Shown here one piece after another: positions 2,041 through 33,606 of a stretch of 46,647 nucleotides of DNA. This stretch comes from Anaerolineae bacterium. Lineage in GTDB: Bacteria > Chloroflexota > Anaerolineae > JAAYZQ01. How positions within the stretch are numbered: position 1 is the stretch's first letter; each line of letters opens with the position of its first letter. The stretch covers positions 1 through 46,647 of the forward strand of contig DAOTYI010000280.1 in the NCBI GenBank assembly GCA_034434895.1, given 5' to 3'. Below the pieces are notes generated by a model. That model ran no database searches. It saw nothing but the letters and a program-made list of their open reading frames with translations, and had not been told where the DNA came from. The translations under genes and the position numbers were made by a program.

Positions 2041-2094
2041 AGGGTGAACCGGCGCCCTGGCGGGTGTGAAAGCGCCCCTGTCGGAGTGAAGGCG

Positions 2095-13163: not shown

Positions 13164-13824
13164 TGGCCAGGGCTGGGTGGTGGTCGGCGGCGCCGAGGGG
13201 ATCGGGCAGGAGGTGGCCCTGCTGGCGGCCCGGCGCGGCGCAACGGTCCTCTGTAGCGGACGGCCGGGGAGCGAAGCGGCGGCGGCCGACCTCCTGGCGG
13301 CTGCCCGCCAGGCGGGGGTGGCGGAGCGGCTCCTGTTCGTCGTCGCCGATCCGGCGTCGCCGGAGGAGGTGGAACGGCTGTTCGACCAGGCCGGGGAGCA
13401 GTTCTTCACCCTGCATGTGCTGGTGTTCAACGGCGCAGACGGACCGGTCCTGGCCGACGGACCTCTGGCCGAGACCTCGCTGGCGGAGTGGAATCAAAAC
13501 CTGGCCGTCCACCTGCGCGGGCCGTTCCTGGTCGTGCAGCGGGTGTTGCAGGAGTTCCTGGCCGGCGGCGAGGGAGGGCGGATTGTGTGCCTCATCCCGG
13601 CCGGGACTGAGGGCCTGGGCCAGGCCGTGGCCGGGTCGGCGCTGCGTTCCCTGGTGCGCAGCGTGGCCAAGGAGTATGGACGGCGGGGGATCGCCTGCAA
13701 CGCCGTACTCGTGCCGGATGAGCCGGCCCAGGCCGTCGCCGAGACGGTGCTGTTTCTGGCCTCGGCAGAAGCTTCATTTGTGAACGGCGAGGTGCTGAAT
13801 CTGGAGAGGAGGAGGGATGATTAA
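13147..13824 (+). CDS. SDR-fold protein lacking the catalytic Tyr/Lys pair (probable non-catalytic or divergent partner)
   Basis: Rossmann GGAEGIG and an NGAD (NNAG-like) motif are present. The expected S...YxxxK segment reads IPAGTEGLGQAVAGSALRSLVRSVAKE, with no Tyr or Lys in register. Confidence 0.6.
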   Translation: MPVRFDGQGWVVVGGAEGIGQEVALLAARRGATVLCSGRPGSEAAAADLLAAARQAGVAERLLFVVADPASPEEVERLFDQAGEQFFTLHVLVFNGADGPVLADGPLAETSLAEWNQNLAVHLRGPFLVVQRVLQEFLAGGEGGRIVCLIPAGTEGLGQAVAGSALRSLVRSVAKEYGRRGIACNAVLVPDEPAQAVAETVLFLASAEASFVNGEVLNLERRRDD

Positions 13825-14353
13825 AGGCAAACGGGTGATTCTCAGGCCGGTGGAGGAGCGTGACCTGCCGCTGCTGGCCCGCTGGCGCAACGATCCGGAA
13901 AACCGGCGTTTCTTTTTCTCCCCGTTCCTCATCAACCCGGGGGGGCAGAAAAAGTGGTACGAGGAACTGCTGGCCGACCGCAACCGCATCATCCTGATGA
14001 TTGAGACCGTGGAGGGCAAGACGGTGGGCATGATCGGCCTGGACAAGATTGACTGGCGCAATCAAGAGGCGGAGAACGGCATCTTTTTGCTCGACCCGGA
14101 GGAGCGGGGCCACGGCTATGCCGAGGAGGCGGGCCTGTTGATGATCGAGTATGCCTTCAACGAGCTGAACCTGCACCGCCTGTACGCCGTCATTTACGAT
14201 TTCAATCACGGCGTGATTGAGATGAGCAGGCTGTTTGGCTTCAAGCAAGAGGGGGTACTGCGCCAGGCGGCCTTTACCGGCGGTCGGTTTCACGACAAAG
14301 TGATCATGGGTCTGCTGCGGGAGGAGTGGCAGGCCGACCAGGTGGGAGAGTAG
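13817..14353 (+). CDS. GNAT-family N-acyltransferase (RimJ/RimL-like, Acetyltransf_3-like)
   Basis: 178 aa. RVILRPVEERDLPLLARWRNDPE... and ...GHGYAEEA...YAF.ELNLHRLYA.I..FN are typical of this GNAT subgroup. Confidence 0.8.
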   Translation: MIKGKRVILRPVEERDLPLLARWRNDPENRRFFFSPFLINPGGQKKWYEELLADRNRIILMIETVEGKTVGMIGLDKIDWRNQEAENGIFLLDPEERGHGYAEEAGLLMIEYAFNELNLHRLYAVIYDFNHGVIEMSRLFGFKQEGVLRQAAFTGGRFHDKVIMGLLREEWQADQVGE

Positions 14354-14356
14354 CCG

Positions 14357-15610
14357 TTGACGCTGGGAACTGACCTGCCGGCTGCCCCGGCGGTGCGTGT
14401 GCACGCCCTGGGGGCTTTCCGGCACAGCAACTATCGCCTCTATCTTCTGAGCACCGTGGTGTCGCAGATCGGCACCTGGATGCAATACCTGGCCGAAGGG
14501 TTGCTCATCTACCGCCTGACCCAGGCCCCTCTGGCGCTGGGGTTGCTGGGCTTTTTGCCGCTGCTGCCTCTGGTGCCCCTCATGTTCCTCGGCGGTGCCC
14601 TGGCCGACCGGTTGCCCCGGCAGAAATATCTGATCTGGGTGCAGATGGCCGCCGTGTTGCCGCCCTTGTGGCTGGCCGCCCTCACCTGGACCGGCCGGGT
14701 GCAGGTGTGGCACGTGATCCTGGTCGAGATACTGATCCAGAGCCTGGCCACCCTGGACAAACCGGCCCGCCAGGCGCTGATCGTGGACACGGTGGAGATG
14801 CAGGACCTGGATGCAGGTGTGGCGCTCAGCGCCTCGGTGTTCAACCTGTCGCGGGTGATCGGCCCGGCTCTGGGTGGGTTGCTGGTCGCCTGGGCCGGCG
14901 AAGGGGTCTGTTTTGCCCTGAACGCGGTCAGTTTTCTGGCTTCGGGGATCGCCTTGCGGTTGCTGCGTTTGCCCTCCTCGGAGGCAGCGGCCCGTAGCCG
15001 GTCGCCGGAGGGCGGGATGCTGGGCGGGGTGCGCTATCTGGCGCGTGAACGGTTCCTGGCTGCCGCTCTGGGGTTGTCGCTGCTGGTCAGCCTGTTCGTC
15101 ATGCCCTATCAGCGGTTTCTACCGGTCTTTGCTCTGGACATCCTGGACGTGGGAGAGGTGGGGTTGGGGGTGCTGAACGCCCTGGCCGGGTTGGGGGCGG
15201 TGTTGGGCGCCGTTGCCCTGGCCGGCGTGGTGAGCCGCTGGCCGGGTCGGCGTGGCAAACTGGCTTGGGGGTTGGCGTTGCTGGTCGGGCCGCTGCTGGC
15301 CCTGTTTGCCCTTGCCCGCTCTGCCTGGCTGTCGGGCCTGATGGTCATGCTGGTCGGCGCGGGGGTGGTGGCCGTGCGCAGCCTGGCCTTTACCCTGGTC
15401 CAGGTCTATGTGCCGGACGAGTTGCGGGGGCGGACACTCAGCATTGTGATTCTGCTATCGGTCGGCGCCGTGCGGGTGGGCGAGCTGGCCGTCGGTTTCC
15501 TGGCTTCTCACGCCGGCGTGACCCCGCCCCTGCTGTTGGCAGCAGGGGCCTGCCTGCTCGGCACCGCTGCCCTGGGGCTGCTGGTGCCCCGGCTGCGCCA
15601 CGCTCCCTGA
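14357..15610 (+). CDS. MFS transporter (MFS_3/EntS-like architecture)
   Basis: 417 aa, about 12 hydrophobic helices. The N-terminal [23 protein letters not shown] is typical of this MFS subgroup. TTG start 4 nt after the GNAT stop. Confidence 0.8.
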
Positions 15611-15649
15611 GCCGTGGAAAGCGTTTGTTGCCTGAAGAGGAGACATATT

Positions 15650-16107
15650 TGTTTACCGCTGAGAACGCAGAGGGCGCTGGGATGAAAGAACGGGAAAATC
15701 TAGATCAGATCACGGCGAGCAGTATCGGTGCAGCTATTGAAGTGCACCGCGCCTTGGGGCCTGGCCTCCTGGAGTCGGCGTATGAAACTTGTCTGACTTT
15801 TGAATTGGCCCAACGCGGCCTGAAGGTGGAACAACAGAAACCCCTGCCCGTGGTCTATCGGGAGGTCAAGCTGGATTGTGGCTACCGCCTGGATCTTCTC
15901 GTCGAAGAAGCAGTCATTGTCGAGGTTAAGGCCGTTGATCGCCTGATGCCGATTCATCAGGCTCAGTTGCTTTCCTACCTGAAGCTTTCTGGTTGCAAGG
16001 TGGGCTTGCTGATCAACTTCAATGTCAGGGTCCTGAAGGATGGCATTCGCCGCGTGGTGAATGATTTTCCAGATTCTCTGCGTCCTCCGCGGGCTCTGCG
16101 GTAAACA
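15650..16107. mobile_element. hairpin-bracketed cassette carrying the GxxExxY gene
   Basis: The left arm TGTTTACCGCTGAGAACGCAGAGGGCGC (15650..15677) is an imperfect reverse complement of TTCTCTGCGTCCTCCGCGGGCTCTGCGGTAAACA (16074..16107), with the first 10 nt (TGTTTACCGC) perfect. The interior is visibly less GC-rich than its flanks. Confidence 0.45.
15682..16104 (+). CDS. GxxExxY protein (PD-(D/E)xK nuclease-like superfamily)
   Basis: 140 aa from ATG 15682. [24 protein letters not shown] (GxxExxY), then [18 protein letters not shown] (D..E.K) and [18 protein letters not shown], the hallmark layout of this family. Confidence 0.85.
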
Positions 16108-16122
16108 GATACGGAGAGGCAT

Positions 16123-17574
16123 ATGGGTACGCAGGATCGGGTGGTGATCATCGGCGCCGGGCCAGCCGGGTTGACCGCCGCCTACGAGTTGACCCGACAC
16201 GGCCGGACGGCAACCATCCTGGAGGCCGATCCGACCTACGTCGGCGGCATCTCGCGGACGGTGGAATACAAGGGCTATCGCTTTGACATTGGCGGCCATC
16301 GCTTCTTCACCAAGAGCCAGGAGGTGAGGGACCTGTGGTACGAGGTGCTCGGCGATGACTTTATCACCCGCCCCCGCCTGTCCCGCTGGCTGTACAAGGG
16401 CAAATTCTTTGACTATCCGATCCGTCCCCTTGAGATCTTGAGGGTGTTTGGACCCTGGCAATCGTTGCGGATGCTTGGTTCCTATCTGCGCAGCCGCCTG
16501 TTTCCGATCCGGCCGGAGGTTACCCTGGCCGACTATTACATCAATCGCTTCGGGCGCTTTTTAGCCCGGCCCTTTTTCATCGAGTACAATGACAAGCTGT
16601 GGGGCATGTCCTGCCGGCAACTCAGCCCCGATTTTGCCCGCCAACGGGTGATGGGCCTCTCCTTCACCAATGCTCTCCTGGTCCCCATCCGACAAAAATT
16701 TGGATTGAAGGGCAGAGATGCCGTCAAAAGTTTTGTCTCCGAATTCCAGTATCCCCGCTATGGGCCGGGGATGATGTGGGAGGCCTTCCGGGACCGGGTG
16801 GTGGCCGCCGGCTGTGCGCTGCACATGGACCGGCGGGTGGTGCAGGTGCGTCACGACGGGCAGCGCATCCTTTCCCTGGTGGCCGAGAGTGGATCGGGGG
16901 AGCGGTTCGAGTACCAGGGTGAGTATCTTCTTTCCACCATGCCCCTGCGCCAGTTGATCCTGTCCCTGGACCCGCCGCCCGACACAGAGGTGTTGATGGC
17001 TGCCCGTGGCCTGCGATTGCGCGATTTCATCACTGTGGCGCTCATCGTCGCCCGACGCAACCTGTTCCCCGACCAGTGGATCTATCTGCACGATCCCGGT
17101 ATGAAACCGATCCGGATGCAGAATTTCAACAACTGGAGTCCCTACCTGGTGCCCGACCCGGAGACCACCTGTCTGGGCTTTGAGTACGTCTGCACCCGGG
17201 GCGACGAGCTATGGCAGATGAGCGATGCCCAGTTGATCGAACAGGCTACGTTGGACCTGGTGCATACCGGCTTTGCCCGGCGGGAGGAGGTGATAGACGG
17301 TGCGGTGGTCCGTTCCCTGGACGTGTACCCGGTCTACACCCTGGACTACAAAGAGCGGGTGATGACCCTCCGCAACTACCTGGCCCGCTTCAACAATCTG
17401 TTACCGTACCACCTCCAGGCTGTGGGCCGGGCCGGGATGCATCACTATAACAATTCGGATCACTCGATGATGACCGCGTTGCTGGCGGTGCGCAACCTGC
17501 TGGGCCAGGGGCCGTTCGATCCCTGGCTGGTCAACGTTGATGGGGAGTACCACGAGGAGGATGCAGGCCGATGA
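16123..17574 (+). CDS. NAD(P)/FAD-dependent oxidoreductase (amine-oxidase/UDP-galactopyranose-mutase-like flavoprotein)
   Basis: VVIIGAGPAGLTAAYEL dinucleotide-binding motif, then EADPTYVGGISRT..YKGYRFDIGGHRFF. Substrate unknown. Confidence 0.72.
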   Translation: MGTQDRVVIIGAGPAGLTAAYELTRHGRTATILEADPTYVGGISRTVEYKGYRFDIGGHRFFTKSQEVRDLWYEVLGDDFITRPRLSRWLYKGKFFDYPIRPLEILRVFGPWQSLRMLGSYLRSRLFPIRPEVTLADYYINRFGRFLARPFFIEYNDKLWGMSCRQLSPDFARQRVMGLSFTNALLVPIRQKFGLKGRDAVKSFVSEFQYPRYGPGMMWEAFRDRVVAAGCALHMDRRVVQVRHDGQRILSLVAESGSGERFEYQGEYLLSTMPLRQLILSLDPPPDTEVLMAARGLRLRDFITVALIVARRNLFPDQWIYLHDPGMKPIRMQNFNNWSPYLVPDPETTCLGFEYVCTRGDELWQMSDAQLIEQATLDLVHTGFARREEVIDGAVVRSLDVYPVYTLDYKERVMTLRNYLARFNNLLPYHLQAVGRAGMHHYNNSDHSMMTALLAVRNLLGQGPFDPWLVNVDGEYHEEDAGR

Positions 17575-19040
17575 GATGGAACAGGTTGCCCACAGCCGGT
17601 CTGCGACCCGCGGCCGGCGGCGGTCACAGACCGCCGGGGAGCACAAACCTCCATCTGCTGCTGCTGGGTGGTTGGTTGGTGATGGCGATGATGGTTGCGG
17701 CCTGTGAGCCGCAGCCCGGCACGCCCACTGTTCCAACAGGCCCGACGGCCCTTCCGCCAGGTCCGACGCCGACCCAACCGCCTCCCTCACCCACACCCCG
17801 TCCGACCGAGACGCCTGTGGCCCCGATAGAGGGGGGAGTGATCGGCGCCCAGGTGGGGCCGGAGCAGGTGGAGATGGTGTGTGCCGGGTTGCAACGGAAC
17901 GGAGTGGCTGCAACGGCCCTGTGGTTGCGTTGGGGCGATGTGGACCCGGGCAACGGGCGCTACGCCTGGGACGAGCTGGACCGCCAGGTGGAGGGGTTGC
18001 GTGCCTGTGGCCTGGAAGTGGCGCTTCACGTCCAGGCCCGCCGCCAGGGTGAACTCTCGGCCCTGCCGCCAGACCTGGAGGAGTATGCCCGTTTCCTTAC
18101 CGCCCTGGCCACCCACCTGAAGGGACGGGTGCGCCGCTATTCCGTCGAAAACGAGGCCGTGTCGCCGGCGTCCTGGGGCGATTCGGCGGACGACTATTTC
18201 CGGCTTCTGGACGCTGCCTACCCGGCCATCAAAGCCGCCGACCCGGAGGCCATTGTGCTCAACAGCGGCCTGTCGAGCGCGGCCCTGGGCATTGCCCGGG
18301 CGCATGACCTGTATCAGGCAGGACAGCGCCCCCAGGCCCTCCATCTGGTGCAGCAGACTCTGGCCGAGTCGGCCGGGGGGCTGGCCTGGCGCATTCCGCA
18401 GAGCGAAGAGGACCTGGACCTCCTCTTTCAGGACCCGGTGGCGGCGCGGGCCGTTGCCTGGCTGCCCCTGCTGATCCAGCACCAGGGCAGCTACGATGCC
18501 TTGCAGTTCCACTACTACGGGCCGGCGTCGCAGTTGCCCGATCTGCTGCGCTGGCTGCGCCAGCAGGGCCTCAACAAACCCCTGGAGGCGTGGGAGTTAG
18601 GCCGGCGCTACCAGGGCCAGGTCGCTTTTGACGAGGCCGCACACGCTCAGGAGACCGCCCGGCTGCTGGTGGCGGCCGCCGGTGAGGGGTCGCGCTTCAG
18701 CCTCTTTGTCCGCTTCCTGGAATGGCCGCAGAAGGGGCTGCCCGGCCTGGCAACCCGGCAGGGGCCACGCCCGGCTGCCGTGGCCTTCCGCGTCGTCGCC
18801 CAAAGCCTGAACGGCTTCCTGGCAGTGGAACGGCTGGACCTGGGTGCAGGGGTGTGGGCTTACCGCTTCACCCGACCCCAGGGCGACCTGTATGTGTTGT
18901 GGACCGATGGCGGCCAGGCGAGCGTGAGCCTGCCCCTGACAGAGGGGGCAGTGAATGTCACCGACATCGAAGGGCAGACGGCGACGGCTGACCCCTCGCA
19001 GTTGGAGATCGGCCCCAGCCCGGTGTTTGTCAGCCCATGA
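17571..19040 (+). CDS. putative secreted lipoprotein, glycoside-hydrolase-like (clan GH-A TIM-barrel suspected)
   Basis: The N-terminal hydrophobic segment ends in a lipobox-like MVAAC, followed by a Pro/Thr-rich linker. VRRYSVENEA resembles the Asn-Glu acid/base strand of clan GH-A enzymes. The functional call is weak. Confidence 0.4.
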   Translation: MRWNRLPTAGLRPAAGGGHRPPGSTNLHLLLLGGWLVMAMMVAACEPQPGTPTVPTGPTALPPGPTPTQPPPSPTPRPTETPVAPIEGGVIGAQVGPEQVEMVCAGLQRNGVAATALWLRWGDVDPGNGRYAWDELDRQVEGLRACGLEVALHVQARRQGELSALPPDLEEYARFLTALATHLKGRVRRYSVENEAVSPASWGDSADDYFRLLDAAYPAIKAADPEAIVLNSGLSSAALGIARAHDLYQAGQRPQALHLVQQTLAESAGGLAWRIPQSEEDLDLLFQDPVAARAVAWLPLLIQHQGSYDALQFHYYGPASQLPDLLRWLRQQGLNKPLEAWELGRRYQGQVAFDEAAHAQETARLLVAAAGEGSRFSLFVRFLEWPQKGLPGLATRQGPRPAAVAFRVVAQSLNGFLAVERLDLGAGVWAYRFTRPQGDLYVLWTDGGQASVSLPLTEGAVNVTDIEGQTATADPSQLEIGPSPVFVSP

Positions 19041-20713
19041 CCTCTCCTGTTTTCCCCTCTGCGCCACGGCGGGTGATGATCATCGGCCTGGATGGCGCCA
19101 CCTGGCAACTGGCCCGCCCCTGGGCCGAAGCCGGTCACCTGCCCACCTTCCGCCGTCTGATGGCCGAAGGGGCCTGGGGGACGCTGCAAAGCGTCCTGCC
19201 CCCGGTGACCCCTGCCGCCTGGAGCAGCTTTGCCACCGGCCTGAACCCCGGCAAACATGGCCTGTTCGACTTTGTGGGGCGGCGGGATGGCTCCTACGAG
19301 ACCTATGTGGCCAATGCTGGCTACCGGGATGGGGTGCCGCTCTGGCAACTGGCCGGCCGGGCCGGCCGGCGCGTCACCGTGTTCAACGTGCCGGCCACCT
19401 ACCCGCCCGATCGGGTGAACGGGCTGATGGTCAGCGGCTTCCTGACGCCGGCCCACGCCACCGACGCCGCCTGGCCTCCTGAGCTTCAGGCTGAACTGGC
19501 CCGGGCCGTGCCGCAATTTACCTTCTATCCGCCCAACATCTACTCCCCCGGCCATGAGGCCGAATTCATCCAGGCCATCTCCGACCTCAACCGGGCCACC
19601 CTGGAGGCGGTGCGCTACCTGCTGCGCCGCCAGCCGTGGGACCTGTTTGTCGCCGTCTTTATGGGTACCGACGTGATCCAGCATTTCCTGTGGGGCCCTA
19701 TGGCACAGGGGGAGGGGGAGCTGGCCGGGGCGATCCTGGACTGCTACCGGCAGATGGACACGGCCCTGGAGGAGCTGGTTGCCGGCCTGGGGCCGGACGA
19801 TTATCTGGTCGTGATGTCGGACCATGGTTTCGGGCCGTTGAGCCACTATGTCCATGTCAACGCCTGGCTGGCCGGGCACGGCTACCTCAAATTCAGGCGC
19901 AATCCGCTGTCGGCGCTCAAAGCGGTGGCCTACCGCCTGGGCTTTACACCGCTGGGGGTGTATGAGAGGCTGCGGGCGCTGGGCCTGGGCGGTCGGATGC
20001 AGGAGACGGCCAGCCGACGGAACGAGTGGCTGAAGGCGATGGTGCAAAAGCTGTTCCTCTCCCTGCCCGATGTGGACTGGAGCCGCACGCGGGCCTATTC
20101 CCTGGGCTTTGGCGGGCCGATCTTTGTCAACCTGCAGGGCCGCGAACCGCAGGGGATCGTCGCTCCGGGCGCCGGGTACGAGGCGTTGCTGGCGCAGATC
20201 GAGGCTGACCTGCGGCAGACGGTGGACCCGGTGACCGGCCGGCCTTTCGTGGGGCAGGTCTATCGCCGCCAGGAGCTATACACCGGCCCGCACGCCGACC
20301 ACGCCCCCGATCTGATCTTTGTGCCCGCCGATTGGGCCTGCCAGCCCTTTGGCACCCACGAGTTTGCCTCCCACCGCTGGCTGGAACCATGCCGTGACCG
20401 CAGCGGTACCCACCGCCTGGACGGCCTGCTGCTGCTGTGGGGACCGGGCGTCCGGCGCGGCGTCCAGGTCGAAAGGGCGGCCATTGTGGATGTGGCGCCT
20501 ACCGTGTTGGCCCTGCTGGGCGTGCCGATCCCAACAGGGATGGATGGTCGGGTGCTGTCTGCCGCCCTGGAGGACAGTTTGCTGACAGCTCTCGACATAA
20601 GATATGACCAGGCAGAAGAGGGAATCTCTGTCCATCGCCCGCTGCCGGACATGAGCCAGGAGGATGAAGAGCTGCTGCGGCACCACCTGCGCGGCCTGGG
20701 GTATGTGGCATGA
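19037..20713 (+). CDS. alkaline-phosphatase-superfamily protein, type I phosphodiesterase/nucleotide pyrophosphatase family (paralog 1)
   Basis: IIGLDGATW (metal Asp), PPVTPAAWSSFATG (Thr nucleophile context) and VMSDHGFGP (metal His) match the NPP/PF01663-type core. C-terminal tail EDEELLRHHLRGLGYVA. Confidence 0.8.
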   Translation: MTSPVFPSAPRRVMIIGLDGATWQLARPWAEAGHLPTFRRLMAEGAWGTLQSVLPPVTPAAWSSFATGLNPGKHGLFDFVGRRDGSYETYVANAGYRDGVPLWQLAGRAGRRVTVFNVPATYPPDRVNGLMVSGFLTPAHATDAAWPPELQAELARAVPQFTFYPPNIYSPGHEAEFIQAISDLNRATLEAVRYLLRRQPWDLFVAVFMGTDVIQHFLWGPMAQGEGELAGAILDCYRQMDTALEELVAGLGPDDYLVVMSDHGFGPLSHYVHVNAWLAGHGYLKFRRNPLSALKAVAYRLGFTPLGVYERLRALGLGGRMQETASRRNEWLKAMVQKLFLSLPDVDWSRTRAYSLGFGGPIFVNLQGREPQGIVAPGAGYEALLAQIEADLRQTVDPVTGRPFVGQVYRRQELYTGPHADHAPDLIFVPADWACQPFGTHEFASHRWLEPCRDRSGTHRLDGLLLLWGPGVRRGVQVERAAIVDVAPTVLALLGVPIPTGMDGRVLSAALEDSLLTALDIRYDQAEEGISVHRPLPDMSQEDEELLRHHLRGLGYVA

Positions 20714-20747
20714 GGCAGGAGGGAAGAGGGAAGAGGCAGGAGGCAAG
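20714..20747 (+). promoter_or_regulatory. 34-nt polypurine spacer with stacked SD-like motifs (repeated at 22461..22494)
   Basis: GGCAGGAGGGAAGAGGGAAGAGGCAGGAGGCAAG lies between the TGA and the ATG. It contains only G, A and a few C, with two or three GGAGG cores. Confidence 0.5.
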
Positions 20748-22460
20748 ATGCAGGATACGCAATATGCAATCCGCAATCGAGTGATGGTGTTGGGGGTGGA
20801 TGGGGCGACGCTGGACCTGATCCTTCCCTGGGCTGAGGCCGGCCTGCTGCCCACCTTTGCCCGCCTGATGCGCCAGGGCAGTTGGGGGGTGCTGCGCAGT
20901 GTCGTGCCGCCGGTCAGCCCCACCGCCTGGAGCTCCTTTCTGACCGGCATGAATCCCGGCCGGCATGGCGTGTACGACTTTATCGGCCGCCGCCCGCGCA
21001 CCTACGAAAATCAACTGGCCAACGCCAGTTATCGCAGCGGTGCCTCGCTGTGGGGGCTGCTGAGCCGGGCTGGCCGACGGGTGACGGTCTTTAACGTGCC
21101 CCTGACCTACCCGGTCGAGCCGGTGAATGGGCTGTTCGTCAGCGGGCTGATGACCCCGGCCGATGCGGCCGACGCCACCTGGCCGCCGGAGTTGCTGGAC
21201 GACATCCGCCGTGCCGTGCCGGCCTTTAACTTTTCGCCGCCCAGCCTGATGCTGCCCGGCCAGGAGGCCGGGTTTGTGCAGGCCGTTGCCGACCTGAACG
21301 AGACGACACGGCGGGTAGCCCGCTATCTGTTGACGCGCCAGCCGTGGGATTTTTTCATGGCCGTCTTTATGGGCGCTGATATAATCTGCCATTTTCTGTG
21401 GAAGCAGATGGCCGAGGCCCGGCCGGACCACCTGGCCGATGCTGTCCAGAACTGCTATCGTCAGATTGACGCCGCCCTGGGCGAGCTGATCGAGATCGCC
21501 GGTCCAGAGACGCACCTGATCGTCATGTCGGATCACGGCTTCGGCCCGTTGGAACGGCAGATACATCTTAACTCCTGGCTGCTGGAGCGGGGCTATCTGG
21601 CCCTCAAGTCGGAACCGGCAACCCGGCTCCGTTCCCTCCTCTACCGCCTGGGCATCACCCGCATGGCCCTGTCGGAGCTGTTGCGCCGCCTGGGGCTGGG
21701 GGAGCGGCTGCGTCGCGCCGGGCGGTATGAGGAGCTGCGCCGCGCCGGGTTGGGGGTGCGGCAGCAAAGGACCGGCCCGCTCCGAGAGCTGGTCAGGCGG
21801 GTCTTTCTGACCATGTCCGACGTGGACTGGTCGCGCACCCGGCTCTTTTCCATCGGCTTTGCCGGGCCACTCTATGTCAACCTGAAAGGGCGCGACCCGC
21901 ACGGCATCGTCGCGCCGGGGGCCGAATACGAGGCGTTGCTGGCGCAGGTAACCGCCGACCTGAGGGCGCTGCGTGACCCACAAAGCGGCGAGCCGCTCAT
22001 CGGCCCCATCTACCGCCGCCAGGAGTTGTACCACGGGCCGCGCGCCGACGAGGCTCCCGACCTGATCTTGATGCCGCGTGACGAAAAAAATGCGCTGACC
22101 GGCATGCTGGAATTTGCCTCGCGCCGCTGGCTGACGCCGGTGCCGGAGCGGACCGGCACCCACCGCATGGACGGCATCCTGTTCCTGGCCGGGCCGGGCA
22201 TCCGCCCCGGCGTCCACCTCGACGACTCATCCATCATGGATGTCGCTCCCACCATCCTGGCGCTGCTGGGCCAGCCGATTCCCACGACGATGGACGGCCA
22301 CGTCCTGGAAAAGGCCATGACCGACGAACTGCGCGCCTCCCTGGAGATCACCCGCACAGCGGTGGAGGAATCCTGGGTTCCCGGCCGATCTGTCGCTTTC
22401 GATGATGAGGAAGAAGCCCTGTTGCGCGAACGGCTGCGCGGTCTGGGGTATGTGGCATGA
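20748..22460 (+). CDS. alkaline-phosphatase-superfamily protein, type I phosphodiesterase/NPP family (paralog 2)
   Basis: From ATG 20748 (MQDTQYAIRNRVMVLGVDGATLD). PPVSPTAWSSFLTG (Ser at the nucleophile position) and VMSDHGFGP. Tail DEEEALLRERLRGLGYVA. The ORF-track start at 20664 overlaps paralog 1 and is rejected. Confidence 0.8.
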   Translation: MQDTQYAIRNRVMVLGVDGATLDLILPWAEAGLLPTFARLMRQGSWGVLRSVVPPVSPTAWSSFLTGMNPGRHGVYDFIGRRPRTYENQLANASYRSGASLWGLLSRAGRRVTVFNVPLTYPVEPVNGLFVSGLMTPADAADATWPPELLDDIRRAVPAFNFSPPSLMLPGQEAGFVQAVADLNETTRRVARYLLTRQPWDFFMAVFMGADIICHFLWKQMAEARPDHLADAVQNCYRQIDAALGELIEIAGPETHLIVMSDHGFGPLERQIHLNSWLLERGYLALKSEPATRLRSLLYRLGITRMALSELLRRLGLGERLRRAGRYEELRRAGLGVRQQRTGPLRELVRRVFLTMSDVDWSRTRLFSIGFAGPLYVNLKGRDPHGIVAPGAEYEALLAQVTADLRALRDPQSGEPLIGPIYRRQELYHGPRADEAPDLILMPRDEKNALTGMLEFASRRWLTPVPERTGTHRMDGILFLAGPGIRPGVHLDDSSIMDVAPTILALLGQPIPTTMDGHVLEKAMTDELRASLEITRTAVEESWVPGRSVAFDDEEEALLRERLRGLGYVA

Positions 22461-22494
22461 GGCAGGAGGGAAGAGGCAGGAGGCAGGAGGCAAG

Positions 22495-24171
22495 ATGCAG
22501 GATACGCAATATGCAATCCGCAATAAAGTGATGGTGTTGGGGGTGGATGGGGCGACGCTGGACCTGATCCTCCCCTGGGCCGAGGCCGGCCTGCTGCCCA
22601 CCTTTGCCCGCCTGATGCGCCAGGGCAGTTGGGGGGTGCTGCGCAGTGTCGTGCCGCCGGTCACCCCCACCGCCTGGAGCTCCTTTCTCACCGGCAGCAA
22701 CCCCGGTCGGCACGGCCTGTACGACTTTGTCGGGCGGCGGCGGGGTAGTTACGACAACTGGCTGGCCAACGCCACCTATCGCAGTGGTGCCTCGCTGTGG
22801 GGGCTGCTGAGCCGGGCCGGCCGGCGGGTGACGGTCTTTAACGTGCCGCTGACCTACCCTGTCGAGCCGGTGAACGGGCTGCTTGTCAGCGGGCTGATGA
22901 CCCCCGCCGACGCCAGTGACGCCACCTGGCCGCCGGAGCTACTGGACGACATCCGTCGTGCCGTGCCGGAGTTTAACTTTTCCCCGCCCGGTGCCTTTTC
23001 GCCGGGTGAAGAGGCCAGGTTCGTGCAGGCCATCGCCGACCTGAACGAGACCACCCGGCAGGTAGCCCGCTATCTGTTGTCGCGCCAGCCGTGGGATTTC
23101 TATATGGCCGTGTTCATGGGCACCGACATTGCCGGGCATTTCTCGTGGAAGGCGATGGCCGATGGCCAGCCGCCGGAGTTGGCCGGCGCCATCCAGGATT
23201 GTTACCGGCAGGTGGATGCGGCCCTGGCCGGGTTGATCGAGGCTGCCGGGCCGGATGTGTACCTGATCGTCATGTCTGACCATGGCTTTGGTTCGCTGGA
23301 CCGTTACCTGCACATCAACGCCTGGCTGCGGGAGCGGGGCTATCTGAAACTGAAGCGGACCCCTGTCACCTGGCTCAAGCGAGCCTTCTACCGGCTGGGC
23401 CTTACCCCGCTGGCCGTCTACCGGGCGCTGCGCCGCCTGGGATTGGGGGAGCAGATACGCCGGGCCGGCCGGCAACGTTCCACGCTGGTCCAGAAGCTGC
23501 TCAAGCGCAGCTTCCTGTCGTTTGCCGATGTGGACTGGTCGCGCACCCGGCTCTTTTCCATCGGCTTTGCCGGGCCGCTCTATGTCAACCTGAAGGGCCG
23601 CGAGCCACACGGAATCGTTGCGCCGGGGGGCGAGTATGAAGCGTTGCTGGCGCAGGTGACTGCCGACCTGCGGGCGTTGCGCGACCCGGCAAGTGGTGAG
23701 CCGCTCATCGGTCCCATCTACCGCCGCCAGGAGCTGTACCAGGGCGAACGTGCCGACGAGGCCCCCGACCTGGTATTCCTGCCCCGCGATATGAGGGACG
23801 GCACCTTTGGCCTGATGGCCTTTGGCTCCAACCGCTGGCTGACGCCAGCCGCCGACCGGACCGGTACCCACCGCATGGAAGGGGTCCTGTTCCTGGCCGG
23901 GCCGGGCATCCGCCAGGGGGTGCATCTGGACGAGTCATCCATCCTGGACATTGCTCCCACCGTCCTGGCGCTGCTGGGCGTGCCCATCCCGGCGACGATG
24001 GATGGTCAGGTCCTGGGAAAGGCCATGACCGATGAACTGCGCGCATCTCTCGACATAACGTATCTGGCTCCGGCTGAGGAGCCTCTGCCGGTCGGCCTGC
24101 CCACCGACTTTGAGAGGGTGGAAGAGGAGCGGCTGCGTGAACACCTGCGCGGCCTGGGCTATGTGGCTTGA
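22495..24171 (+). CDS. alkaline-phosphatase-superfamily protein, type I phosphodiesterase/NPP family (paralog 3)
   Basis: From ATG 22495. The first ~200 nt differ from paralog 2 at only about 6 positions in my manual alignment. PPVTPTAWSSFLTG and VMSDHGFGS. Tail VEEERLREHLRGLGYVA. Confidence 0.8.
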   Translation: MQDTQYAIRNKVMVLGVDGATLDLILPWAEAGLLPTFARLMRQGSWGVLRSVVPPVTPTAWSSFLTGSNPGRHGLYDFVGRRRGSYDNWLANATYRSGASLWGLLSRAGRRVTVFNVPLTYPVEPVNGLLVSGLMTPADASDATWPPELLDDIRRAVPEFNFSPPGAFSPGEEARFVQAIADLNETTRQVARYLLSRQPWDFYMAVFMGTDIAGHFSWKAMADGQPPELAGAIQDCYRQVDAALAGLIEAAGPDVYLIVMSDHGFGSLDRYLHINAWLRERGYLKLKRTPVTWLKRAFYRLGLTPLAVYRALRRLGLGEQIRRAGRQRSTLVQKLLKRSFLSFADVDWSRTRLFSIGFAGPLYVNLKGREPHGIVAPGGEYEALLAQVTADLRALRDPASGEPLIGPIYRRQELYQGERADEAPDLVFLPRDMRDGTFGLMAFGSNRWLTPAADRTGTHRMEGVLFLAGPGIRQGVHLDESSILDIAPTVLALLGVPIPATMDGQVLGKAMTDELRASLDITYLAPAEEPLPVGLPTDFERVEEERLREHLRGLGYVA

Positions 24172-24245: not shown

Positions 24246-27200
24246 ATGAAGGGTGACAAGAAGGCGACGCTTCTGGCGTCATGGCGCACCTGGCCGGAGT
24301 GGTGGCTGCTCCTTCTGGGCCAGGCGATCTTTTGGGCGGTGCGTCCCTGGCTGATGGGGAGGGAATGGCATTGGGTGGTGGCCTGGGGAGCACTGGGCCT
24401 GTTCCTGTTGCCCGGCACTTCTTTGCTGGTGCTGCTGGGCGACAGTGGCAACTGGTGGGAGCGGCTGAGCCTGGCCTTTGTCGGCAGCCTGTCGCTGCCC
24501 AGCCTGCTAGCCCAGGCGGCCATGCTGCTCCACACCAACATCCAGACCTGCACCTGGGGCTTCCTGGCCCTGACCGGGGTTCTGCTGCTGGCTGCCCTGC
24601 TGCGCCAGATCTTGGGCCCTCCGGCCGGGGAGGCGATCCGCCCTGATGAAGGGCGTACCCCTTTCTGGCTGGTTCTTTTTCTGGCCGCGCTGCTGGCTGG
24701 TCTGGCGGTTTACTGGGCCAACGCCCCCATGGATTCCGACCAGTGGAACGCCCTGGCCTGGGTGCAAAACCTGCGCCATGATGCCCGGATGATGGCCGAG
24801 GAACCGCTCTATGGTCTGGGCATCCCCATCTCGCCGCGCTACATGTTTGTGCCGTGGCTGACCCATCAGGCCATGCTCTCCCTGCTGACCGGGCTGGACC
24901 CGGTGGACCTGCTCATCCCGCTGCGGCTGCCCCTGATCTTCCTGTCCATCGGCGCCGTCTACCGCCTGGCCCGCGCCATCACCCGGCAGCGCAAAGCCGC
25001 TGGCCTGGCGACGCTGGCCTGGGGCTTTTATCTGCTGGTCTGGAACCAGGGCTCCTATCCCGGCTACGACCTGGTGGTCCGCTCCGACCTGGACAAGATT
25101 CTGGCCAGTTTCACCCTGCTGCCGGTCATCCTGGACCTGGCCCTGGCTGCCCTGCAACGCGGCACCTGGCGCGAGTGGGCCTGGCTGGCGCTGGGTTCAG
25201 TGGCGGCTGCCCTGATGCACCCGTTGGCTGTGGGGCTGGTCGGCCTGTCGCTGCTGGGGCTGGCGGGCATCGAGGTGTTGCACCTGATCCTGCCCCCCTG
25301 GAAAACGATGACCCTGGCCGACCGGCGACGGCTGCTCCTCCGCCTGGCCCTGACGGCCTTGATCCTCGGCCTGGCGTTGATCCCGTCGCTTGTCGGGCTA
25401 CAGGCCGGCGCGGCCACGCCCACCGGCACTGTGGTCTCCAGCGGCCTGCAGGATACGCGCGACCCCAGCCTGGCTCGCAACCTGGGCTATGCCCTGGCCC
25501 AAAAGCGGCTCTGGATCCTGGACAGCGGCCGCTATATCGTCCATCCGCAGATGTTGCTCCAGCCGATCCATCTGGTGGCCCTGGTGGCCCTGCTCGTCCT
25601 CCTGCCTCTGCTGCGCCGCGAGCGGGGCGTCCGCCTGCTGCTGGGCATGGCCATCACCATCCCGATCTTGACCCTCAACCCGCTCACCGCCGGGCTGCTG
25701 GGGCGGTTCACCACCCCCTGGCTGCTGTACCGGCTGGCCTGGCCGGTGACCCTGGCGGCAGCGGTGGCTATCGGCTGGGGCCTGTATCTGCTGTTTCAGC
25801 GGCGGGTGTGGCGGCGGCTCAGCACCGTGGCGCTGATCGCCCTGTTGCTGGCCGTGGCCCTGGCGGCCATCCCGGCCTATCAGGCATCTGTCACCTGGCT
25901 GCGCGAACGCCGCGACACCTTTAGCGCCAACACCTGCTTCCAGGCCGGCCCGATCCTGCGACCTTTCCAGGAGCTGGTGCCCGGCGCGGAACCGCCGCCT
26001 GAGCTGCCCCCGCCCGACCCGCAAACCCAGGCAGGCCGGTGGCGGAGCGGCGTGACCGTCCTGGCCGACGATGACATGAACGGCTGCCTGACCTCCTACG
26101 CACCCTATGCCAACGTCATGGAGTTCCGCACTACCAACCTGATCCGCTACTATCCACCTGACAAAGAGGAGGTGGCCTGGCAACGGCTGTTCGATGCCCT
26201 GTACTACAGCAACGCCGAGTTTGTGGACCGGCGCTTCCTCGACCTCCTGGACCGATGGGCTATCGGCTATCTGATTGTGCGCCAGAGTTCGCCGTTAGAG
26301 CCGCAGTTGCGCCACCTGCCCGGCCTGTTCCAACCGGTCGCTTCGGCGGTGGGGCGCACCATCTACCGGGTGGAACGTCCCCTGTCGCCGTCAGCGGTGG
26401 TGGAGGCCAACACCCTCCTGGCTGAAGGCCGGTTCGAGCAGGGCATCGCGGCCTATCAGAGGCTCCTGAACACAGGGGATGACGACGCCCGTTTCCTGGC
26501 GCTGCTGGGCCTGGGGCGGGCCTATCTGCACACCGGGCAGGTGGAGCAGGCCATTACTGCCTGGCAGCAAGCCACCGCCTGGCCGGAGGAGGCCCTGCCC
26601 TGGGCCTGGCTGGCCGAGGCCTACCTGCTCCAGGGCCGTTCCGACCAGGCCCTGGCCGCCTATCGGCAGGCTGTGGCCCGCCAGCCGGGTAATGTGGCCT
26701 TTCAGACCCGGCTGGGCGACCTGTGCGCCGCCGCCGGCGACCTTGCCTGCGCCCAGGCGGCCTACAACGCCTCGCTGGCCGGCATCCCGCCGGAGAGCAG
26801 CACCGCTTACAACCGGTTGGGGCAGTTGTGGCAGAACGCCAATGCCAACGAGCAGGCCATCGCCGCCTATGAGAAGTCGCAGCAGATCTACGAAGGGTAC
26901 CTGACCTGGGGGGCATTGGGCGCCGTCTATCTGAAGCTGAGGCAGTGGGAGCGGGCCGAAGCGGCCTTCCGGCGTATCCTGGAGCTGGACCCGTGGGAGG
27001 AAAGTGCGCACCAATATCTGGGCCAGCTCTATGCCGCACAGAACCGGATGCAACAGGCAGAGGAGGAGTACCGGCTGGCCCTCCGCCTGAACCCCCTGGC
27101 CAGCGGCGGCTATGCTGCCCTGACGTCGCTGTGGGTCAGCCAGCAGGGGACCCCTGCTGCCATAGAGCGGCTCCGGGAGATGGTCGGCTTTCGGCTGGGC

Positions 27201-30200
27201 CTGGCCGACGCTCTGGCAGCGATGGCCGACCTGCAAAACCGGGCCGGCCGGCCCGACCAGGCGGTGGGGACTCAGCAGCGGGCGATTGACTGGTGGCCCC
27301 TGGCCGGCAGTGCCTACGACTCGCTGGGCACCTATCAGGCGGCTGTGGGCCGGACTGACGAAGCCGGAGCCAGTTTCCGCCGGGCGTTGGACCTGTCCAG
27401 CAGCGATGCGATGGCCTGGCTGGGCCTGGCCGGCCTGGCCCGTCAGGGCGGCGACCTGGCTTCGGCCCTGGGGTACAGCCTGCGTGCCGTCCAGGCAGCC
27501 CCCTATCAGGCCTATCCCCACCAGGCTCTGGCCGGCCTGTACGAGGCCCTGGATCAGGACGACCTGGCCCTGATCCACTATCAACTGGCTGTGTCGGTCG
27601 AACCGAACTCCGGCTCGCCGTTGCTGGCTTTGGGGGGCTACTACCAGCGCCAGGGAGACCTGGCCCGCGCCCAGGACCTGTATCAGCATGCTGAGGCGGT
27701 GCAGCCCAATGCCAGCCTCTACTTCAACCAGGGCCGGCTGGCTCAGCTCCAGGGGCAGTTGGACCTGGCCATTGAGCAGTTGCGCCGGGCGGTCGAGCTG
27801 GCACCCGGCTACGGCTACCTGCGCGTCGGTCTGGGGCAGGTCCAGACTCAGGCTGGCGACCGGCAGAGCGCCCTGGAGCAATACCAGGCCAGCATCCGTC
27901 TGGACCCCGGCTTTGTCAGCGGTTATCTGTCGCTGGGCAGCAGTTACGAAACTCTGGGGCAGTGGGACCTGGCCCAGGCCGCCTACCTGACCGCCACGCA
28001 GACGGTGCCGGGTGACCCGCAGGCCTATGTCAGCCTGGCCCGCCTGGCGGCCAGGAGGGGCGATCCTGAACGGTCGCTGGCCTGGTACCGGCAGGCCATG
28101 GAGGTCGCTCCCCGGTCGGCTCTGGCCTGGCGGGCTATGGGAGATTACTGGAAGGGGCGTGGCGACGTCCAGGCTGCCGTGGCTGCCTATCGGCAGGCCA
28201 TAGCCCTGGCCCCGGCCGACGTCGCCGGTTATGCAGCCCTGGGCAACTTGTACATCCAGACCAGTGATCTACAGGCTGCCGAGGCGCAGTACCGGGCCGG
28301 CCTGGAGTTCAATCCCGGCTCTGGCCAGTTGCACAGCCTGCTGGGCGACCTGTACGCCCGGCAGGGGCAGGCCGTGCCGGCCGAAGCGGCCTACCGGCGT
28401 GCCCTCCAGGCCGAGCCGATCTACCTGGGCGCCTATACCTCCCTGGCCAATCTGTACCGCCGCCAGGGGAGATTCGATGCCGCTCTGGCTACCTATCGTC
28501 AGGCAGAGTCAAAGCTGCCCGGCTCGGCTGACCTGCAGATCGCCCTGGCCGGCTATCTGCGCAGCCGGGACCAGCGCGACGAGGCGCTGGCCGCCTACCG
28601 CCGGGCCATCAACCTGTCGCCGGGGCTGGCCGGCCCCTGGGATAACCTGGGCGACGCCTGCCGCGCCTGGGGCCAGTTCGACCAGGCCGAGGCCGCCTAC
28701 CAGCAGGCGCGAACCCTGGAGCCGGGCAACCCGCAACCTCACCTGGGCCTGGGGCTGGTCTATCAGAGCCTGGGGCGCTTTGACCGGGCAGAAGCCGGGT
28801 TCCTGGCTGCTGCCGCCCTGGATGCCACCTCCGGCGAACCGTGGCAACGGCTGGGGGCGCTCTATCTGCTCCGGGGTCGCGCCGGCCAGGCGATCGCTGC
28901 CTGGCAGAAAGCGGTGGCCCTCAACCCGCTTGACCCCTATGCAGCCGTGGCGTTGGGCCAGGCCTATCAGCAGCTTGGCGACGCGGACAAAGCCCTGGCC
29001 GCGTTGCGCGCCGCCGTCCAGAGCTCCCCTCTGTCCGGCTACGCCCGCGATGCCCTGGCCCGGCTGCTGATGGCCCTGGGCCGGACCGACCAGGCGCAGG
29101 CCGAGTGGCTGGCCGCCACTCAAAACGATCCCACCTTTGTCCAGGGCTTTCTGGGCCTGGCCGACCTGTATGCCCGTCAGGGGCGATTTGAGCAGGCCGA
29201 GGCGACCTGTCGCGCCGCCCTGGATGCCGACCGTTCGGCCCCTGGCGGCTATGTCCGGCTGGGGCAGTTCTTGCAGGACCGGGGACGTTTTGACGAGGCA
29301 TTGGCCTGGTTCCAGGCCGGGGCTCAGGCCGCGCCCGCTTCCGGCTATGCCCACCTGGCCCTCGGTTCGGCCTATGTCCGGCGTGGACAGGTGGCCCGGG
29401 CGGAGGCCAGCTACCGCCGGGCCATGGCCGCCGATCCGACCTTTATCCAGTCCTCTCTGGCGCTGGCCGGCCTGTTGCGCAGCCAGGCCCGGCCCGGTGA
29501 AGCTGGGGCTGTGCTTCAGGAGGCCATCGCCGCCAACCCGGCCGACCCCAACGGTCCCATCGCCCTCGGTCAGCTCTATGCGGCGCAGAATCAGCCGGAG
29601 AAGGCGCTGGTCCAGTTCCAGGCGGCGGCGGCTCTGGCACCTGGCGCCGCCGCTCCCTCCCTGGCGGTGGGCGATTTCTACCGCAGCCGTGCCCGCTGGG
29701 ACGAGGCCCTGGCTGCTTATCGGAAGGCGACGGAATTGGAACCGGCAGCGGTGGGCGGCTATGTGCGCCTGGGCGACACCTATCATTCCCTGGGGCGTTT
29801 CACGGAGGCCGAACAGGCCCTGCAGCAGGCCATCCGGGCCGATGCCGGCAGCCCCGATCCCTGGCTGAGCCTGGCCCGCCTGTATCAGACCTGGGGCCGT
29901 TTTGACCAGGCAGCGGCGGCCAGCCAGACCGCCATTCAACTTGCCCGGCACCTGGCCGGCGGTTATCTGCGTCTGGGTGAGGCGTACCAGGCTCAAGGCC
30001 AGATTCAGGCGGCCCTTGAGGCCTACCGCCAGGCCACGGAGATGGCCGCTGGGGACCCACAAGCCCACGCTACAGTGGCCGGCCTGTACCGCGATCTGGG
30101 CCAGGTGGACCAGGCGGAAACCGCTTACCGCTCTTCCATTGCCTGCGACCGGAGCAACCCGGCCGGCTACGTGAGGCTGGCTGCCCTCTATCAGGCGCAG

Positions 30201-33557: not shown

Positions 33558-33606
33558 TGGCAGGGTCATAACCTTGTCCCCAACTCGGCCTGGGTCTACA
33601 GCAGGG

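Follow-up and report, generated by a model that had tools for sequence, protein, structure and literature searches.

The array and its enzymes

Contig DAOTYI010000280.1 of the Anaerolineae assembly GCA_034434895.1, analysed from position 1 to 46,647 (46,647 nucleotides, nt) and called the window below, carries four related genes for predicted enzymes of the nucleotide pyrophosphatase/phosphodiesterase (NPP) type. Three of them lie head-to-tail on the forward strand and make up the array: c1 (19037-20713; 558 amino acids, aa), c2 (20748-22460; 570 aa) and c3 (22495-24171; 558 aa). The fourth, c4 (35175-36809, also forward; 544 aa), is a dispersed copy. This arrangement had been reported in a preliminary description of the stretch, and the coordinates hold nearly to the base against the list of open reading frames and the matches to the Pfam family PF01663. 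The mechanical reading frame of c2 runs from 20664 and so overlaps c1; the ATG at 20748 was taken as the real start, being preceded by a GGAGG-rich spacer and giving an N-terminus like those of c3 and the other family members. The start of c1 overlaps the stop of the gene upstream by 4 nt. At the protein level c2 and c3 are 76% identical, c1 is 56% identical to c2 and 59% to c3, and c4 is 37-40% identical to the other three. A 13-aa insertion, YEELRRAGLGVRQ (21726-21764, forward), sets c2 apart; it repeats the neighboring LRRLGLG motif of the helical insert described below, and the conserved extreme C-terminus of the family is built of the same LRxLG(Y/L) motif.

All four proteins match PF01663 at 130-145 bits against a cut-off of 23 (E 1e-37 to 1e-42) and contain the motifs GxDG, PPV[T/S]P..W.SF.TG, GxDxxxH, SDHGF and G[T/D]H. 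The preliminary description had read the active sites as intact, with a nucleophile alternating between Thr and Ser, and on both counts it stands. The ligands of the two metals (Asp; Asp-x3-His; Asp-His; His), which in c1 numbering are D19, D212, H216, D262, H263 and H459, are present in every copy, and the nucleophile is Thr58 (ACC) in c1, Ser57 (AGC at 20916-20918) in c2, Thr57 (ACC at 22663-22665) in c3 and Ser62 (TCG) in c4. Among 114 family members the last five of these ligands are invariant, D19 is aligned in 109 (the other five have gaps there), and the position equivalent to c1 residue 58 is Thr in 64 and Ser in 50.

The fold was modeled with AlphaFold. An AF2 run with only the four paralogs aligned gave a pLDDT of 45 and was discarded; the model used was built on an alignment of 98 homologs (pLDDT 91.5, pTM 0.90). 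Its top Foldseek matches in the PDB are the Xanthomonas (Xac) NPP, ENPP1, 3, 5, 6 and 7, and PhnA, which, together with the Pfam matches, backs the earlier assignment to the NPP type of the alkaline phosphatase superfamily. Against Xac NPP the model has a TM-score of 0.73 normalized to the target (E ~1e-16) at ~15% identity. The predicted protein has ~170 residues more than Xac NPP, chiefly a four-helix insert (~residues 290-339) and a C-terminal extension; the insert accounts for ~100 extra residues between the DH motif and the last His ligand. A PDB sequence search with c1 alone found nothing significantly similar, and the best match of the 98-sequence profile was to PhnA, at E = 2e-8 and over the N-terminal ~100 residues only.

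Dozens of full-length homologs, among them P0003 (at 83% identity to c1 and 98% coverage of it), are called "predicted AlkP superfamily phosphohydrolase/phosphomutase" at JGI, a name that we take to correspond to COG3379; at NCBI, close homologs are called "alkaline phosphatase family protein". By sequence, catalytic residues and predicted fold, then, c1-c4 belong to PF01663 and to COG3379. The family is very large, with 22,225 clusters at 50% identity for E <= 1e-3 and 5,239 for E <= 1e-30, and nearly all members are 545-580 aa long. An acidic C-terminal tail with G-Y/F within the last five residues is found in 112 of the 114 members, the consensus end being LRxLGY[VL]x. Arg residues are conserved too (R350, R369, R410/411 and R460). 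Searches of NCBIfam, of the PDB by sequence and profile, and of the literature turned up no characterized COG3379 member, and no paper on the subfamily was found under COG3379, its JGI name, PF01663 with polysaccharide, or the alkaline phosphatase superfamily with undecaprenyl or GT-C.

NCBIfam holds no equivalog for c1-c4. The PhnA model (TIGR02335) reaches 21-31 bits against a cut-off of 407.55, the PafA model (NF042991) 19-28 bits against 650, with only a C-terminal 45-residue stretch matching, and the models for phosphopentomutase and for cofactor-independent phosphoglycerate mutase (iPGM) 17-18 bits against 254-330; the arylsulfatase model is far below its cut-off. Nor do the proteins look like formylglycine sulfatases, as the nucleophile region reads PPV(T/S)PAAW, with no Arg at +4 and so no C/S-x-P-x-R motif. 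PF00884, the branch of LtaS, EptA and GacH, gives 16.5-17.9 bits with c3 and c4 against a cut-off of 25 and no match with c1 or c2, and Pfam scans of the four proteins found no PglZ or other defense-related match. The four thus fall outside the PhnA, PafA, sulfatase, iPGM/DeoB and LtaS/EptA families.

The enzymes are probably cytoplasmic. The topology and signal-peptide check proposed in the preliminary description predicts no transmembrane (TM) segment, signal peptide or hydrophobic N-terminal segment in any of c1-c4, which therefore lack the signal peptide or anchor and external catalytic domain of a canonical secreted or ecto-NPP. The GxDG motif starts at residue 16-21 in the four proteins, and the family has a median of 9 residues before the first catalytic motif; in 150 cluster representatives the match begins at about residue 2-15, except in a few longer fusion proteins. 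Fusions to DUF2304, taken up below, place the enzyme domain after the third TM helix and carry positive charge in the loop that joins TM1 to TM2. That loop is strongly positive in P0132, so that the enzyme domain following TM3 would lie in the cytoplasm.

Repeated junctions and the age of the array

The two junctions within the array are nearly the same DNA, as had been noted. The c1-c2 spacer (20714-20747, forward) and the c2-c3 spacer (22461-22494, forward) are each 34 nt long and all purine, agree at 32 of 34 positions, and are built of 7-nt units (GGCAGGA/GGGAAGA) with GGAGG Shine-Dalgarno-like motifs. A repeat finder reports a 300-nt repeat of 93% identity at a spacing of 1747 nt, and the first 200 coding nt of c2 and c3 differ at exactly six positions (20778, 20779, 20825, 20834, 20917 and 20942), so that the spacer length, the period and the count of about six mismatches given earlier are all borne out. 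The shared tract can be delimited as 20688-20947 and 22435-22694, both on the forward strand. The first copy takes in the final 26 nt of c1, the spacer behind it and 200 nt (~66 codons) from the start of c2; the second has the same make-up, with c2 and c3 in place of c1 and c2. The two copies are identical at 251 of 260 positions (96.5%), with a longest exact repeat of 82 nt, whereas in the immediate flanks the ungapped match is 36% on the upstream side and 84% on the downstream side.

As an observation apart, each spacer can be laid out as about five tandem 7-nt purine units (GGCAGGA/GGGAAGA/GGCAAG), each with a Shine-Dalgarno-like GGAGG, and codons 3-9 of c2 and c3 are likewise three 7-nt units (ACGCAAT ATGCAAT CCGCAAT). 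In the 95%-identical relative L004 the spacers are shorter, 20 nt at c1-c2 (L004 11678-11697) and 13 nt at c2-c3 (L004 13411-13423) versus 34 and 34 nt in the window, and the number of units therefore changes quickly, probably by slippage.

The homology at the junctions is best explained by gene conversion between c2 and c3. Where the two proteins have the same amino acid, they use the same codon at 62 of 65 positions within the tract and at 244 of 360 in the remainder (Fisher p = 7e-7), an excess that is not due to chance, and identity at third codon positions stays at 0.90-1.0 for ~65 codons from the start and is ~0.6 elsewhere. Over the same codons c1 shows no rise in third-position or synonymous-codon identity to either c2 or c3, so that amino acid constraint is not the cause of the excess either. 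Synonymous divergence (dS) between c2 and c3 in the window drops to 0.073 in the tract, from 0.633 in the rest, and a similar drop is seen in L004 (0.129 versus 0.607); in the more distant L001, which serves as outgroup, it is missing (0.93 in the tract region, 0.91 in the rest). The ortholog dS between the window and L004 is 0.10-0.12, near the tract values of 0.07-0.13, which dates the conversion to about the time those two lineages split. The single-base difference between the Ser codon of c2 and the Thr codon of c3 lies inside the tract and is kept in both the window and L004; that it survived within converted DNA suggests that it matters. Purifying selection on the nucleotides of the tract, for instance as a regulatory RNA, is not favored over conversion, because the tract is not consistently slower to diverge between genomes: c2 is 94.4% identical in the tract and 96.9% in the rest, and c3 97.4% and 95.9%. 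An Rfam scan of the window found no match, and a promoter scan gave no more hits than expected by chance; terminator-like hits fall mostly within coding sequence.

The preliminary description had been right to see homogenization, although the tract joins c2 and c3 only and c1 shares just its last ~26 nt; and of its two explanations, recent duplication or gene conversion, the second holds for a short tract while the first fails. The sister genome, L004, is a metagenome-assembled genome at NCBI (Anaerolineae H21_249) that is 94.9% identical over 14.6 kb and has c1, c2 and c3 in order, tract included. In L001, at ~80% nucleotide identity, a radical SAM gene stands between c1 and c2, and c3 is followed, as in the window, by the giant TPR gene; the copy number of the array, which was to be checked in related genomes, is therefore three in both. 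The orthologs of c2, that of L001 among them, have the Ser nucleophile and the 13-aa insertion in common. In a neighbor-joining tree, part of the phylogenetic and dN/dS analysis that had been called for, c1, c2 and c3 each group with their own orthologs within one lineage-specific clade, with copies from L001, L004, L005, L084 and L086, and c4 falls in a distant clade. Values of dN/dS per copy are 0.10-0.18 against L004 and 0.16-0.29 against L001, and each copy in the array is under purifying selection. The three-gene array predates the split from L001, and all four genes appear to be long-diverged paralogs that are individually maintained.

A recent tandem duplication, or an artefact of assembly, would account for junctions that are near-identical over 260 nt and for a period of exactly 1747 nt. 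It is hardly credible at all, given that the copies differ at 24-44% of their amino acids, that c2/c3 dS is 0.63 outside the tract, and that independent assemblies (L004 from NCBI; L001 and L002, JGI and ENA contigs at ~80% identity) show the same ordered gene set. The agreement of these assemblies, with the protein divergence, rules out the artefact. The array is an old, selected gene set, and its repeated junction is an ordinary small conversion tract rather than a sign of recent amplification. Public assemblies hold no exact match to c1 by sequence look-up. The radical SAM gene of L001 (11711-13027, between c1 and c2) is of the B12-binding type and has no counterpart in the window; neither has a 317-aa, second-type PF01663 protein encoded among the fatty-acid-synthesis-like genes of L001.

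The locus and its counterparts in other genomes

The genes from 16123 to 38176, among them all of c1-c4, run in one direction with short gaps or overlaps. In order, with the gap to the next gene in nt, they encode an amine-oxidase-like FAD protein (-4), a 489-aa predicted lipoprotein (-4), c1 (+34), c2 (+34), c3 (+74), a giant membrane protein (+16), a MurJ/Wzx-like flippase (+23), c4 (-4) and a Wzy_C protein. The lipoprotein (17571-19040, forward) has a VAAC lipobox and a Pro/Thr-rich linker, and the 4-nt overlaps at both ends of its gene suggest translational coupling to both neighbors. It matches nothing in Pfam or NCBIfam; in L001, L004, L005 and L086 a homolog immediately precedes the NPP array. 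Its N-terminus is lipoprotein-like (...LVMAMMVAAC), and weak PDB matches (E = 0.05-0.2) are to TIM barrels of the GH10 xylanase type.

The giant protein (24246-33557, forward; 3103 aa) begins with ~13 TM segments, followed by ~2500 aa of TPR repeats; as a whole it matches Pfam DUF6077, and its first 720 aa scanned alone match nothing. A GT-C-like transferase whose substrate-binding domain is very large is one possible identity. By the positive-inside rule, a crude guide to topology, the TPR part would lie outside the cell. The idea that the acidic C-terminal tails of the enzymes dock onto this TPR domain is unlikely for that reason: by the same crude topology the TPR is extracellular, and the enzymes look cytoplasmic. 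The MOP-family flippase (33574-35151, forward) lies directly upstream of c4, and directly downstream is the Wzy_C membrane protein, resembling O-antigen ligases and polymerases (36806-38176, forward), whose start overlaps the c4 stop by 4 nt.

Further upstream are genes for a GT2 glycosyltransferase, a DegT aminotransferase, short-chain dehydrogenases/reductases, an ApeI/FabA-like dehydratase, an acyl carrier protein, a phosphopantetheinyl transferase, a ketosynthase pair of the KS/CLF type, an acyltransferase, a ketoreductase (KR), a GNAT protein and an MFS_3 transporter; downstream are a 1139-aa beta-helix protein, two GT4 glycosyltransferases, an epimerase and a WecG/TagA-type transferase. 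Judged by these predicted products, the whole is an envelope-glycan or glycolipid locus. The genes between 7843 and 14353 (forward) form a fatty-acid- or polyketide-like set (dehydratase, acyl carrier protein, phosphopantetheinyl transferase, two ketosynthase genes, acyltransferase, KR and a RimL-like GNAT at 13817-14353), and in L088, a relative without this set, the GNAT alone is present. An amino sugar made by the DegT enzyme may therefore receive an unusual N-acyl chain from the set. Two other proteins are probably part of the envelope-glycan system: a 488-aa protein with ~10 TM segments and no family match, encoded directly after ruvB (2044-3510, forward), and the beta-helix protein just mentioned (38311-41730, forward), which follows the Wzy_C gene and has a right-handed helix and an N-terminal signal anchor. 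An open reading frame of the PD-(D/E)XK nuclease family (15265-16104, forward; PDDEXK_3, E = 7e-44), between the MFS_3 and amine-oxidase genes, looks like a hitch-hiking insertion; it is 82% identical in L004, versus ~95% for its neighbors, and L001 has none.

Scanning species-representative genomes gave 564 relatives. Almost all of the best 80 are Chloroflexota (Anaerolineae, Caldilineales, Ardenticatenales and Promineifilaceae), with a few from Planctomycetota and Eisenbacteria and one from Bathyarchaeia. Counted within 10 kb on either side of the matched gene, there is a single copy in 54 of 83 loci, against two copies in 24 and three in five. In the neighbor-joining tree of 114 copies the type of nucleophile is clade-specific, and the multi-copy loci (nine ST, nine SS, three TT, two TST and one each of TS, TTT and TTTT) typically pair different old clades, with a similar branching order in the paired clades. 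Several adjacent copies overlap by 4 nt.

The neighbors elsewhere are those of glycan assembly. Among 135 immediate non-paralog neighbors from other genomes, with families counted separately so that proteins can overlap, the commonest are GT2 in 31, LPG_synthase_TM in 19, the GT-C families PMT_2 and PMT in 15 and 9, Polysacc_deac_1 with DUF3473 in 7, DUF2304 in 5, and GT4 and ABC-2 in 4 each. Homologs of the TM-plus-TPR giant flank the family's enzymes in 14 of 87 loci, and also in L088 and L091-L093, and are 1250-3250 aa long. The assertion that such enzymes are not standard parts of Wzx/Wzy loci is accordingly true of textbook loci, and does not extend to the envelope-glycan loci of Chloroflexota, where they recur. 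L086 has fatty-acid-synthesis-like genes, two GNATs, GT2, MFS_3, one NPP gene, two Pfam-less proteins, GH26 and three NPP genes; L088 has a dTDP-aminosugar pathway, GNAT, GT2, MFS_3, two NPP genes and the giant; an operon in L091 has a short GT2, a DUF2304-NPP fusion, a deacetylase, Acetyltransf_6 and the giant; and L094 has a Wzx-like gene, NPP, an NPP-NPP fusion, GT2, a second Wzx-like gene, an acetyltransferase, Wzy_C and GT4.

The fusions make this association physical. DUF2304 is joined to COG3379 in ~27 protein clusters. It is the family of GacJ, a three-TM activator of the undecaprenyl-phosphate-GlcNAc synthase GacI, and also holds Rv3632, a stimulator of PpgS (bioRxiv 10.1101/180810). 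Two complete enzyme domains are joined head-to-tail in P0121, P0270 and P0271, proteins of different sources that are 63-64% identical to one another; in P0121 the first domain is of the Thr type and the second of the Ser type. These natural double fusions, with the recurrent Thr/Ser pairs and the 4-nt overlaps, suggest that the predicted paralogs work together physically. In L095 (8001-10466) a single protein combines PUA_2, ATP sulfurylase and a COG3379-type domain, and the next gene encodes an APS kinase, which hints that at least that branch may be directed at pyrophosphate or nucleotides. More distant fusions join TPR, with or without a sulfotransferase, to PF01663 (P0349, P0352). The link between COG3379 and the genes of lipid-linked glycan assembly is a conserved one, both operonic and physical.

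A possible role in lipid-linked glycan assembly

The reading that we favor, with confidence a little better than even, is that c1-c4 are maintained COG3379 paralogs of the NPP branch that would cleave phosphodiester or pyrophosphate bonds as accessory enzymes of polyprenyl-phosphate-linked glycan assembly, at the cytoplasmic face of the membrane. As in NPPs, the attack would go through a covalent phospho-Thr or phospho-Ser intermediate and lead to cleavage or transfer, and a role on the phosphodiester or pyrophosphate bonds of lipid-linked intermediates is plausible. The preferred candidate substrate is a polyprenyl-(pyro)phosphate-linked sugar that would be edited or decorated before flipping, a position comparable to that of ArnD, which acts on Und-P-Ara4FN. 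Next would come the nucleoside diphosphate (NDP) or pyrophosphate released when GT2 or nucleotidyl transfer proceeds reversibly, since hydrolysis of this by-product would draw the reaction onward; this would fit the ATP sulfurylase fusion of L095, since ATP sulfurylase depends on the removal of pyrophosphate. Polyprenyl pyrophosphate made de novo is the least preferred of the three. The paralogs would probably act as hetero-pairs of Thr-type and Ser-type enzymes, or on successive or different substrates.

Several points weigh against this. The cytoplasmic placement comes from missing export signals and a crude analysis of hydropathy and of the positive-inside rule, and what is said of substrates is drawn from context, as no characterized member was found. 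A hydrolase of by-products has no obvious need for three or four diverged paralogs per locus, and a decorating enzyme needs a donor, which the locus does not evidently provide. DUF2304 is missing from the window, whose single GT2 gene is 15 kb upstream of the array. In the related matter of the junctions, the timing of the conversion was drawn from ~195 aligned nt.

The preliminary description had drawn an analogy to LtaS and EptA. Extracytoplasmic phospho-alcohol transferases of that kind, or like GacH, would move glycerol phosphate or phosphoethanolamine from outer-leaflet phospholipid onto the glycan; the superfamily and the chemistry of Thr/Ser plus metal are shared, and the several paralogs per locus have parallels in EptA/B/C and PIG-N/O/G. 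The COG3379 neighbor set also closely resembles the streptococcal GAC locus, which has a GT2 (GacI), a DUF2304 protein (GacJ), a flippase, a GT-C (GacL) and the putative glycerol phosphate transferase GacH of the alkaline phosphatase superfamily (bioRxiv 10.1101/180810). The analogy fails on topology, there being no N-terminal TM domain or signal peptide in c1-c4 or in essentially the whole family, so that transfer from phospholipids outside the cytoplasm is unlikely; DUF2304 fusions would put the enzyme domain inside, PF00884 stays at 16-18 bits against its cut-off of 25, and the best structural matches are to NPP, ENPP and PhnA. We consider such transferases very improbable. Cytoplasmic sugar-phosphate phosphomutases feeding nucleotide-sugar synthesis, like phosphopentomutase or iPGM, would have the right location and nucleophile; the COG name allows either a phosphohydrolase or a phosphomutase, the four-helix insert could serve as a cap, there are weak NCBIfam and PDB matches to both enzymes, and RmlA/B-type genes lie near the NPP genes of L088. 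With NCBIfam scores of 17-18 bits against cut-offs of 254-330, a closest fold that is that of NPP and not of iPGM or DeoB, and three or four mutases per locus hard to explain, this too is improbable; the DUF2304 fusions, and neighbors that mostly serve membrane steps and not nucleotidyl transfer, fit a role at the membrane face better. That the genes are phosphate scavengers of the Pho response, present in a glycan locus by accident, is scarcely credible: published PF01663 members do include scavenging enzymes of the PafA and NPP types, and there is the weak local match to PafA, but that match reaches 28 bits against 650, the proteins lack an export signal, many genomes keep both the synteny and the 4-nt overlaps with glycan genes, and some members are fused to DUF2304.

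Returning to accessory enzymes at the cytoplasmic face, one may go further, to a proposal that we put forward tentatively and hold to be doubtful as it stands. COG3379 would be an undescribed catalytic component of polyprenyl-phosphate-dependent envelope glycosylation, in which Thr/Ser hetero-pairs dock on a glycosyltransferase of the GacI/GacJ type (literally so in some lineages, by way of the GacJ/DUF2304 fusion) and either add or remove a phosphodiester-linked group before flipping or destroy the NDP, making the GT2 step irreversible. If so, the multi-paralog arrays would encode a repertoire of decoration or specificity for the envelope glycans of Chloroflexota. A very large family, concentrated in Chloroflexota and with a fully conserved catalytic site, recurs in phyla whose envelopes are poorly understood (Chloroflexota, Planctomycetota, Eisenbacteria and Bathyarchaeia), and its consistent linkage to GT2, GacJ-like, flippase-like and GT-C-TPR genes, with the fusions, offers a testable lead to a missing step in lipid-linked glycan assembly.

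Among known systems, the characterized NPPs (Xanthomonas NPP, PDB 2gsn and 7n1s; ENPP1-7) belong with c1-c4 to PF01663 and have the same core fold, and their six metal ligands and Thr/Ser nucleophile are found at equivalent motifs. They differ in being secreted or ecto-enzymes, whereas c1-c4, only ~15% identical to them, have no signal peptide and carry the four-helix insert after the DH motif and the acidic C-terminal tail; by motif reading alone, the Asn that follows "HG" in NPPs is not conserved, the COG3379 family having HG-x-x-D-F instead. PhnA (PDB 3szy, 1ei6) is cytoplasmic, as c1-c4 probably are, has an NPP-like fold like theirs and is the best PDB profile match; it differs in that TIGR02335 falls far below its cut-off here and that no phosphonate-biosynthesis gene is annotated in the window. 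GacH, LtaS and EptA have the superfamily and the genomic company (GT2, DUF2304, flippase, GT-C) in common with COG3379, yet they belong to the PF00884 branch and have a multi-TM N-terminal domain and an external catalytic domain, neither of which is predicted in c1-c4. The systems GacI/GacJ/GacK/GacL and PpgS/Rv3632/Rv3779, which are not homologs of c1-c4, likewise combine a DUF2304 partner, a short GT2 and a GT-C-like protein. As described, these systems contain no component with the NPP fold, and the putative GT-C beside COG3379 differs from theirs in carrying a very long TPR domain.

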